From a virus (taxonomy: Duplodnaviria; Heunggongvirae; Uroviricota; Caudoviricetes), in IMG/VR virus record IMGVR_UViG_2703718802_000001: a DNA stretch of 29,795 nt; one strand, written 5' to 3'. Within the stretch, counting starts at the first letter, position 1. The number at the start of each line of letters is the position of its first letter. Below are positions 21,001-24,000 of the stretch, piece after piece. A program made the position numbers.

Positions 21001-24000
21001 AATTAATGGCTGCTATCCATTAAAAGAGTATCCTCCCCATATACATAAAAAATTAATAACAATAGTGAACAAATGCATTCATGTAGATCCAAATGAAAGA
21101 TATCAATCCGTACTAGATGTACTAAACGATCTCTCAGCTATAAGTGATGGCGTTCTTGACTGGCGTCTACAGATGACGAAACCAACTAACGGCACATGCG
21201 AATGGCAAAAAAAGTCTGGGGACGCTATACTGTCTATAGTTTTTGACGCAGAAAATTCGTCTACTACTGGTTTTCGTTTATACGATGATGGGCGGAAAAG
21301 GCGTGCTACGAACTTAACAATATCCTCAGGATGTACCCCTACAAAACTGTATAGGTTATTAAAGGATAACTGATCATGAAAAAGCGCGAGGAAGTAAGCA
21401 AGCTGCCTCGCAGACGTGATGCAGCATTAGCGGTTCCCTACAAAAAAGATGAGTTCATAAGCCCTTCTGATGACAAAAAATTTTCAAAGGCGAAAAGTTT
21501 TACATCTACATCTCTAAAAGATAAATACTTTAAAATCTAGCCCGGCCTCAGCGCCGGGTTTTCTTTGCCTCACGTTCGCCCACCTAAAAAACATAACCAA
21601 TTGTATTTATTGATGTAACTCGCTAAACCATGCAGTTATGATCCCTGCCGCATAACCTTCATCAGCCACATTTTCAAAAATAAATTTCCTTATATATCAG
21701 AATCATACTTCGTAGAGTTAATAAATCACCAAAATTCGTACCAATAGTTCTTGATAATGTCGAACTATTGGTTCATTATTATCGTCGTCAGCAGGACGCA
21801 TTACTCACCAGGGCGGTGAATATACAACGATTCGAATATGAATCTACGGCGCTGACAAAGCGCAATAACCAAAGTGAACTTTGGGGTGTGGTGAAGGGTT
21901 CATGGACGGGAATATGTCGCACGTAAAGCGGCGAGGCCTGCGGGACTATTGCCGAATTGAAGTAGGCCGAAACAGGTCGAAATGGGTCTCCCACCTACCA
22001 CACCACCAAAGTTCATCAGGAGGTCTATATGACACGCAGAACTCAGTTCAAAGGCAATTCACGTTCTCGTCGTCGTGAGCGTTTAAAGGCAAAGGCATTA
22101 GCTAACGGCGTACTGGCCCGCGAAGAAGCAATAAGTTCAGAAGTATTACACCGCCCTACTCTAAGCAGAGCGCAGATTCAGGCTAAAGGTACTCACGAAA
22201 CGCCTGAGCGCATAGAAGACGCTAAGCCAATTAAGTTCATGGCACAGGACGTGATCTGGCAACAGAAAGAATACAGACGCAATCTGGAGCGAGCGGCCAT
22301 TGTGTACGCGAATGAGTTTGGACATAAGCAACCAGAAACTGGTGTATGTCTTCCAAACGTAGCCATTTACGCGGCAGGCTACCGGAAATCAAAACAACTG
22401 ACGGCGAGGTGACTTGTGTTGGTCGCCAGAAAATGAAATTAGGCAGCAAACCACTTATTTGAGGTGAGATATGACAAAATCATGGAGCGTACCTTTTCCT
22501 GAATCAGAAACTGAACATGATGGAATGCCTGTTTTCTGGAGATTCCAGGCGACAGTTGAAGAAGATGGGATAAAAATATTCGCACTTCAATATATAGCTT
22601 TTCATCAGACAGAGCATTATGCATGGTTGGTTCCTGCGCATTGGATTGTTAATTTTAAACCAGCACCAAATCAGTGGTTACAGGAATGGAAACAAAGGAG
22701 AAATAGATATGCAATTAAGAAAGTAGCAAAAAATGCAGAAAGATCTTTTGCATTCCCAACGAAGAAACTTGCCATTGAAAGTTTATTGCGCCGGAAGAAA
22801 TACCATTTAATGAGAATCAAACAAGATTTGGCTGTTGTATCAACTCTTGTTGATGGTATGAAGAATATTGATACATCAACACCAGATATTGAATATAACT
22901 TTGGACACAACCAAGAAACAGAAAATTGGGTATTTTATTAGTACGAATAAGCACTGTGTATTCATTCCAACGAGTGAATACACGGAGCAATGTCGCTCGT
23001 AACTAAACAGGAGCCGACTTGTTCTGATTATTGGAAATCTTCTTTGCCCTCCAGTGTGAGGGCAATTTTTTTGACGGAGGATATATGAAATTACGTGTCT
23101 GGCATATCCCGCAAGTACCTATGAAGCCGTTCATTGTAGAAGTGGCAAGTGTTGAAGAGGGTGTTCGTCTGATGGACGCACTGGCTGATTATGACGCCTT
23201 TCAGTATGACAACAACATCAAGCCTGATTACTGCAATGCTAACGGCCTTGAGATGTGGGATGAGAGCCTTACCGATGAAGATTTATCAGAGATGGGGCTT
23301 ACTGATCGCTGGGTGGATTGGTACAGCGAATGCCAATGTTACGACGACCCACGTAAATATCTCGAAAGCCTGAAAGAAGAAACATCAGCCGCCTAAGCGC
23401 GGCTTTACCGCATACCAATAACGCTTCACTCGAGGCGTTTTTCGTTATGTATAAATAAGGAGCACACCATGCAATATGCCATTGCAGGGTGGCCTGTTGC
23501 TGGCTGCCCTTCCGAATCTTTACTTGAACGAATTACCCGTAAATTACGTGACGGATGGAAACGCCTTATCGACATACTTAATCAGCCAGGAGTCCCGAAA
23601 AATGGATCAAACAATTATGGCTATCCAGACTAAATTCACTATCGCCACTTTTATTGGCGATGAAAAGATGTTTCGTGAGGCCGTCGACGCTTATAAAAAA
23701 TGGATATTAATACAGAAACTGAGATCAAGCAAAAGCATTCACTACCCCCCTTTCCTGTTTTCCTAATCAGCCTGGCATTTCGCGGGCGATATTTTCACAG
23801 CCATTTTCAGGAGTTCAGCCATGAACGCTTATTACATTCAGGATCGTCTTGAGGCTCAGAGCTGGGAGCGTCACTACCAGCAGATCGCCCGTGAAGAGAA
23901 AGAGGCAGAACTGGCAGACGACATGGAAAAAGGTCTTCCACAGCACCTGTTTGAATCACTCTGTATCGATCATTTGCAACGCTGCGGGGCCAGCAAAAAA

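Follow-up and report, generated by a model that had tools for sequence, protein, structure and literature searches.

Two GACAA-loop hairpins as probable boxB elements of nutL and nutR in a 933W-type Stx phage sequence

The IMG/VR virus record IMGVR_UViG_2703718802_000001 (29,795 nucleotides (nt); hereafter "the window", meaning the whole stretch of DNA that was analysed) contains two early operons of lambdoid type, one leading into gene N on the + strand and one leading through cro-like and cII-like genes on the - strand. Each of them carries a copy of a 19-mer that folds into a small hairpin with a GACAA loop. A preliminary description of this DNA, made from the sequence alone, had proposed these copies as nutL and nutR and hence as the probable RNA target of the arginine-rich motif (ARM) of the N protein. 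Here we report a computational follow-up of that proposal. In lambdoid phages, transcription from pR does not efficiently reach Q unless N acts at nutR, and late transcription of stx2 in turn requires Q. It is at the nut sites that Stx phages set their early antitermination switch, which matters for toxin production; stx2 lies in the same window.

A repeated hairpin in two early operons

A search of the window allowing up to 3 mismatches returned only two 19-mer sites, CTACGGCGCTGACAAAGCG at 21844-21862 (+) with 0 mismatches and CTACGTCGCTGACAAAGCG at 18338-18356 (-) with 1 mismatch to it; none of 100 dinucleotide-preserving shuffles of the sequence held two matches. The preliminary description had placed the copy on the - strand exactly and the other, given as 21845-21863 (+), one base too far to the right. 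The complete hairpins are 15 nt long, and in each case the 5-bp stem with a GACAA pentaloop that had been proposed is the minimum-free-energy (MFE) structure of a folded 31-nt RNA, at -8.5 kcal/mol (z = -3.1) for nutL and -6.6 kcal/mol (z = -1.7) for nutR. The last stem base lies outside the 19-mer and is C in nutL and A in nutR, which offsets the single mismatch within the 19-mer (G versus U), so that a single compensatory pair change separates the copies, G-C in nutL and U-A in nutR. Bases 1-5 of the 19-mer, CUACG, stand outside the hairpin, the C closing a spacer hairpin and UACG forming a conserved linker. Both structures have the makings of a boxB, namely a G+C-rich stem of about 5 bp, a U-A closing pair and a purine-rich, GNRA-like loop of 4-5 nt.

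About 0.4 hairpins with a 5-bp stem and a GACAA loop are estimated to occur by chance in 2 x 29.8 kb. A third one, UCCGC-GACAA-GUGGA at 17102-17088 (-), is found inside gene O on the strand transcribed from pR, and phage 933W has the same; it is without the UACG linker and the U-A closing pair and is probably fortuitous.

The map of open reading frames (ORFs), a promoter scan and the 933W annotation bear out the proposed positions, upstream of N and between cro and cII: there is one site per early operon, each on the transcribed strand of its own operon, the pL-side copy before N and the other after cro and before cII (Table 1). The pL transcript probably starts near 21787, judging by homology to the conserved start RTCAGCAGGACGC in lambda, P22 and VT2-Sakai, so that nutL begins about 10 nt into the transcript and continues with two spacer hairpins, the UACG linker and the GCGCU-GACAA-AGCGC boxB. 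In nutR the order is CGCUAUUUU, CACAAU, the GGAC-AUUC-GUCC hairpin, UACG and the UCGCU-GACAA-AGCGA boxB. The spacers thus contain dyad symmetries of the H-19B/933W type, one stem-loop in nutR and two in nutL. As for targets of antitermination, a terminator-like barrier lies downstream of N, matched in position by a putative terminator in the HK97 annotation; the tR1 terminator after nutR is Rho-dependent according to the literature.

Table 1. Coordinates of the nut sites and of the surrounding early-operon features in the window
Feature	Position	Strand	Basis or remark
pL-like promoter, TTGATA-17 nt-CATTAT	21751-21779	+	promoter scan
nutL, begins CGCATTAC, ends AGCGC	21797-21863	+	933W record AF125520, "putative N-utilization leftward"
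First nutL spacer hairpin, UCACC-AGGGC-GGUGA	21805-21819	+	fold; stem constant and loop variable in relatives
Second nutL spacer hairpin, GAUUC-GAAUAU-GAAUC, "reducer"-type dyad	21829-21844	+	fold
UACG linker, directly 5' of nutL boxB	21845-21848	+	comparison of relatives
nutL boxB, GCGCU-GACAA-AGCGC	21849-21863	+	fold
Gene N, 127 aa	22029-22412	+	ORF map, annotation, Pfam
Candidate tL1, intrinsic-terminator-like hairpin and T-run, after first ORF downstream of N	23044-23065	+	
pR promoter, TTGCAA-16 nt-CATAAT	18649-18676	-	same position as pR in AF125520
cro-like ORF	18617-18390	-	downstream of pR, upstream of nutR
nutR	18337-18382	-	AF125520 annotation, "putative N-utilization rightward"
boxA-like CGCUAUUUU	18374-18382	-	7/9 to CGCUCUUUA
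nutR spacer hairpin, GGAC-AUUC-GUCC, "reducer"-type dyad	18356-18367	-	fold
UACG linker of nutR	18355-18352	-	
nutR boxB, UCGCU-GACAA-AGCGA	18337-18351	-	fold
nutR-cII interval with hairpin UAUGCG-UUUCCA-CGCAUA (18307-18290)	18252-18336	-	corresponds to the H-19B nutR/tR1 Rho-dependent terminator region of published reporters
cII-like ORF	18251-17955	-	

Along its entire length, the ORF that follows nutL matches Pfam family PF25694 ("Transcriptional antitermination N peptide"), with 57.5 bits against a cut-off of 27.9; NCBIfam had no model for it. Its ARM spans approximately residues 9-25 (GNSRSRRRERLKAKALA) and its C-terminal VAIYAAGYRKSKQLTAR is common to P22 gp24. A protein with an N-terminal ARM is thus encoded right after nutL, where a cognate N would be expected.

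Identity with published sites and variation among relatives

Over its full length, the segment 18000-22500 is 99.9% identical to phage 933W (AF125520 / NC_000924), from which it differs by one single-base indel between the two nut sites (4501 versus 4502 bases) and otherwise in nothing of substance; it is 99.9% identical to dozens of other Stx1 and Stx2 phages as well. In AF125520 the annotated nutL and nutR features each stop exactly at the final base of the respective hairpin, and pR, pM, oR1-3, cI, cro, cII, N and the terminator tM are annotated as well. The nutL feature in GenBank begins with CGCAUUAC, whose homologue in the lambda leader lies outside boxA. HK97 has the same boxBs as the window and an N protein 98.4% identical to the one encoded here.

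Experimental data come from H-19B. The supplement of Muteeb et al. 2012 (PMC3526286) lists oligonucleotides RS662-RS665, antisense to boxA, spacer, boxB and the stretch directly following boxB of H-19B nutR; all four match the + strand of the window without a mismatch, tiling 18311-18394, and the H-19B nutR of that laboratory is therefore the same sequence as nutR here. According to that study (PMC3526286), the site contains two hairpins; N together with NusA/NusG protects spacer and boxB, and not boxA, against RNases H and T1; the Rho footprint covers the spacer and not boxB; nutR and the tR1 rut site overlap as in lambda, nutL being without an overlapping Rho terminator; and a nutR/tR1-lacZ reporter is read through only when H-19B N is supplied. 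The same nutR cassette has been used in vitro and in vivo in related papers, again with N-dependent read-through of tR1. A published suppressor in H-19B N is L108F, consistent with the L at residue 108 of the window N.

The first set of relatives was built from 80 IMG/VR loci with N proteins 98-100% identical, to which the window and 7 phage records were added, making 88 sequences; the IMG/VR loci were useful for assessing invariance and not covariation. Loci from scans with the N proteins of g341c and P22 were added for diversity, giving about 240 fetched loci in all. In the first set, CTACG-GCGCUGACAAAGCGC is found exactly upstream of N in 82 of the 88 sequences and CTACG-UCGCUGACAAAGCGA exactly on the other strand in 77. 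Both boxBs are invariant in 77 loci, around an immunity region that varies from 1240 to 3490 nt and includes at least seven cro-proximal clusters; N and both nut sites thus travel as a unit around exchangeable immunity modules. Within the nut sites of these 77 loci, variation is confined to three places, namely the spacer-hairpin loops, the stem of the nutR spacer hairpin, with one G.U-compatible change (a GGGC variant that still pairs, as G.U), and position 5 of the boxA-like sequence. The second nutL spacer hairpin is typical in having, among relatives, a fixed stem and a loop that reads GAAUAU, AAAUAU, AAGCAA, AAACAU or AGUGAU.

The wider set allowed loops to be compared with ARMs. Five ARM patterns were scanned, four of which gave boxB hairpins, the SPN9CC type having been missed by the filter. 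Among the approximately 240 loci these four ARM types fall, without exception, into two loop classes: the 933W type (KGNSRSRRRERLKAKALANG) is accompanied by a GACAA loop at both sites and the P22 type (AGNAKTRRHERRRKLAIERD) by GCGCU-GACAA-AGCGC at nutL and ACCGC-CGACAAC-GCGGU at nutR, while the g341c/epsilon34 type (NGSAAGRRRERRAALQN) and the VT2-Sakai type (GTAASRRRARRANLQ) are accompanied by a GAAA tetraloop at both. The spacer-hairpin and UACG scaffold is kept across this loop switch. Because MAFFT put boxBs with 4-nt and 5-nt loops out of register, pair types were counted by script; the distinct boxB variants show 4, 3 and 2 pair types at stem pairs 1, 2 and 3, and every cell is a standard pair (G-U included).

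Two further observations concern the scaffold and the loops. UACG is found 5' of boxB, together with the preceding spacer hairpin and ACAAYG, in both nutL and nutR of all scaffold-type phages (including L003-L006 and many IMG/VR loci), even where the boxB stem and loop differ. In Salmonella phage SPN9CC (L003, ~4385-4400 +) and 6 similar loci, N is 86% identical to the window N, with the ARM KGTSRARRRERLK; nutR has a U.G-closed GACAA boxB and nutL has GCUC-C-GUCAA-C-GAGC, whose GUCAA loop is closed by a C.C mismatch like that of P22 nutR. Apparently one ARM serves two loop sequences in this type.

The leader of N contains another conserved structure, between the nutL boxB and the N Shine-Dalgarno sequence. 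Positions 21874-21892 pair with 21997-22016 (+) to form a helix of about 19 bp (GUGAACUUUGGGGUGUGGU / ACCACACC-A-CCAAAGUUCAU) that encloses approximately 21893-21996 and ends 1-2 nt before the Shine-Dalgarno sequence. The first 88 loci yielded 20 distinct N leaders in five length classes (104, 129, 140, 166 and 262 nt) with unrelated interiors, and the helix was retained in every MFE fold when each leader was folded on its own. Its inner half covaries (GGUGUGGUG/CACCACACC; GGUGAAUGCAG/CUGUAUUCACC; GAUGCGAUG/CAUCGCAUC; GAAAGCG/CGCUUUC), a covariation that did not show when RNAalifold was run on MAFFT-aligned leaders, where the unrelated interiors were out of register. The helix probably corresponds to the RNase III-sensitive hairpin in the leader of lambda N; a curious feature is the exchangeability of the interior "cassettes".

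Elsewhere in the window, four extra genes occupy the interval between cI and pL (19464-21560, +): two hypothetical ORFs, one of which is now RuvC-like in RefSeq, the eukaryote-like Ser/Thr kinase gene stk and one further, small ORF. The annotated tM, a strong hairpin resembling a bidirectional terminator, comes next at 21539-21560. With these genes the nutR-nutL distance is 3.5 kb, in the longest class among the 77 loci. The intervals 7161-8401 (-), 8492-8743 (-) and 9185-9718 (-) together hold the genes for Shiga toxin A (Pfam RIP) and B (Pfam SLT_beta), for Q (Phage_antitermQ) and, between Q and stxA, for three tRNAs (Met-CAT, Arg-TCG and Arg-TCT by ARAGORN); this stx, Q and tRNA content fits a 933W-type Stx2 prophage. 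Two full-length Rfam matches are the small RNA STnc100 (RF02076; 151.9 bits), at 6875-7086 (-) just downstream of stxB, and the lambda cIII thermoregulator (RF01804; 88.5 bits), at 23456-23514 (+) ahead of the cIII homologue.

Interpretation as N-utilization sites

We interpret the two copies as the boxB hairpins, each with its UACG linker, of nutL and nutR in a lambdoid phage of the 933W/H-19B/HK97 type, that is, as sites for N-mediated antitermination, and give this reading a probability of roughly 0.95. From the present analysis it draws on sequence, position, strand and fold, on identity to annotated and experimentally used sites, on the family membership of N and on the co-variation between ARM and loop; the N-dependent antitermination and the footprints on the nutR sequence come from the literature. 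We infer the detailed contacts between ARM and loop, and likewise that nutL is functional, nutR being the better tested of the two sites. The candidate assignment in the preliminary description therefore held, the 933W record having nut features that end on these very hairpins and the H-19B nutR oligonucleotides matching the window. Its remark that no database was needed was also true, though databases already hold the answer: the nut sites are already known, having been annotated in 1999 (Plunkett et al., AF125520) and in experimental use since 1998.

In the mechanism that we envisage, RNA polymerase would transcribe nutL and nutR once pL and pR are derepressed, and N, whose gene lies just downstream of nutL, would bind the nascent 15-nt GACAA hairpin through its arginine-rich N-terminus. 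To judge from the P22 complex, the loop of this hairpin probably takes on a GNRA-like shape from which the C is flipped out. NusA would bind the adjacent spacer with an affinity raised by N, NusG would stimulate, and looping of the RNA would bring N, NusA and NusG to the elongating polymerase. A polymerase so modified is expected to resist the Rho-dependent tR1, which overlaps nutR and extends beyond it, as well as terminators farther downstream, among them the hairpin at 23044-23065, which would be the obvious first barrier on the left arm. The predicted outcome is that the delayed-early genes are expressed and, farther down the pR operon, also Q and, through it, Stx2.

No evidence contradicts this reading; four caveats apply to it. 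The nutL site is without a recognisable boxA, the best match between transcript start and boxB being 5/9 to CGCTCTTTA. The nutR hairpin, taken alone, is only modestly stabler than shuffled sequences (z = -1.7), as expected for a 5-bp stem. General databases gave little help: a PDB sequence search with the whole N protein found no relevant match (a chance match to citrate lyase had E = 1.5), the P22 peptide of PDB entry 1A4T being too short and divergent for phmmer, and Rfam, run over the entire window at the gathering threshold, yielded STnc100, Lambda_thermo and the three tRNAs but no nut or boxB family. Finally, the experimental support pertains to the identical H-19B nutR, and the putative function of nutL is suggested by annotation, homology and co-variation.

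Two other identities for the hairpins were rejected. Neither is followed by a T-run as an intrinsic terminator would be, and the operators are annotated elsewhere, the motif being a strand-specific RNA.

Other explanations of the repeat itself have to be weighed. That the shared sequence flanks at least seven cro/immunity clusters, with copies 1240-3490 nt apart and at mosaic junctions, would suit a recombination boundary or linker for swapping immunity modules, conserved mainly for that purpose and not as an RNA signal. A DNA linker, however, needs no hairpin on the transcribed strand, no compensatory stem changes and no loop that tracks the ARM, and published footprints show protein on the RNA (PMC3526286), all of which makes such a primary role very improbable; a recombination role is at most an extra consequence of conservation and not an alternative function. 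Even less credible is the idea that the nutR copy is primarily a rut/tR1 terminator signal to which the nutL copy is a coincidental relative. It takes its appeal from the overlap of nutR with the tR1 rut site in H-19B and from the Rho footprint on the spacer (PMC3526286), but what Rho protects is the spacer and not boxB, which is protected by N with NusA/NusG, and nutL, without an overlapping Rho terminator (PMC3526286), has nevertheless kept its hairpin in 82 of the 88 first-set sequences. That the nutR region serves both purposes belongs to the accepted model and does not compete with it.

There is, at the far end of the scale, next to no likelihood that a chance repeat or a generic stable hairpin without specific function is involved. 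The GACAA hairpin in gene O, and the 0.4 expected by chance, show that the motif is not very rare; yet the 19-mer repeat never arose in shuffles, and both copies have the UACG linker, a spacer hairpin upstream and a place in an early operon, and they are invariant in about 80 independent contigs. These alternatives fail on strand specificity, compensatory changes, the co-variation of ARM and loop and the published footprints, and the reading as boxB elements of nutL and nutR is the one that we retain.

The sites, their RNA structure and their dependence on N are already covered by the 933W GenBank record and by some 25 years of H-19B papers, among them Neely & Friedman 1998 and 2000 and publications of the Sen laboratory between 2005 and 2015. 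The result therefore has calibration value for a genome scan, a real regulatory RNA having been found from sequence symmetry alone and without tools. Two points may be of interest to specialists, the boxA-less nutL and the apparent membership of the window N and P22 N in one class of boxB specificity, and both may be published already.

Comparison with lambda, P22 and other lambdoid phages

The preliminary description had likened the hairpins to lambda boxB, and rightly so. The nut sites of lambda occupy the same genome positions (pL, then nutL, then N; cro, then nutR, then cII), and its boxB, too, combines a 5-bp stem ending in a U-A closing pair with a purine-rich pentaloop that an N-terminal ARM reads. 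The lambda loop is GAAAA/GAAGA and that of the window GACAA, the stem sequences differ, and lambda N has no detectable similarity to the window N outside the logic of the ARM. Unlike that of lambda, the spacer in the window is long, with one hairpin (nutR) or two (nutL).

The layouts also differ in boxA. The boxA-like CGCUAUUUU of nutR reads CGCUCUUUU in HK97 and many relatives. The pL transcript start RTCAGCAGGACGC and the first hairpin are homologous in the window, lambda, P22 and VT2-Sakai, the CACC...GGUG hairpin of the lambda pL leader being the homologue of the first nutL spacer hairpin. After that first leader hairpin, where lambda, P22 and VT2-Sakai have the boxA CGCUCUU(U)A, the window leader has AUAUACAAC. 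With a best match of only 5/9, nutL is effectively boxA-less and departs from the textbook lambda layout; a boxA 5' of boxB, to which NusB/S10 bind, defines that layout and not the H-19B type. N of H-19B is reported (Neely & Friedman 2000) to need NusA and not NusB/S10 or boxA, and the spacer stem-loop was reportedly named "reducer" there.

Phages of the epsilon34/g341c and VT2-Sakai types have the same scaffold as the window (ACAACG, spacer hairpin, UACG, boxB), and for the Salmonella phages N is 70-86% identical to the window N in its central and C-terminal parts. The boxBs of both types differ in having a GAAA tetraloop (CGGCU-GAAA-AGCCG and similar), and the ARMs of both types differ from that of the window. 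For epsilon34, the divergent N-terminus had already led the authors of the genome paper to predict a new boxB specificity.

Among the known systems, P22 is a closer counterpart than lambda as regards boxB, its nutL boxB being identical to that of the window at 15 of 15 positions (GCGCUGACAAAGCGC). P22 nutR differs, with another stem and a C.C-closed loop where the window nutR keeps a stem of the nutL type, and P22 also differs in having a canonical boxA (CGCTCTTTA) at both sites, no UACG linker and no spacer hairpins. The ARM core of P22 gp24, GNAKTRRHER, aligns with GNSRSRRRER of the window N, giving the common core GN(S/A)(R/K)(S/T)RR(R/H)ER. Both proteins belong to the same Pfam family and share the C-terminal LP.VA.YAAG.RKSKQ.TAR, in detail VA(L/I)YAAG(H/Y)RKSKQ(I/L)TAR; they are about 40% identical overall, with unrelated middle regions.

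In the NMR structure of the complex of P22 N peptide and boxB (PDB 1A4T, Cai et al. 1998), as described in a recent structural survey, GACAA forms a GNRA-like fold and its looped-out cytosine contacts a His and an Arg of the peptide. These residues would correspond to Arg16 and Lys20 of the window N if the numbering is as inferred, and the two ARMs, as aligned, likely recognise the same RNA. More tentatively, and with the odds somewhat against it, N of the 933W/H-19B/HK97 type and N of the P22 type may form one class of boxB specificity, and nutL of the 933W type may be naturally boxA-less, organised by the UACG linker and the spacer hairpins and not by boxA and NusB-S10. In the searchable literature there was no statement of a single specificity class or of a boxA-less nutL, although papers by Neely & Friedman or by Franklin, outside that search, may well state both. 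If the single class is real, the ARM of either the 933W type or the P22 type would bind the GACAA hairpin of the other, in phages that differ in both host and morphotype.

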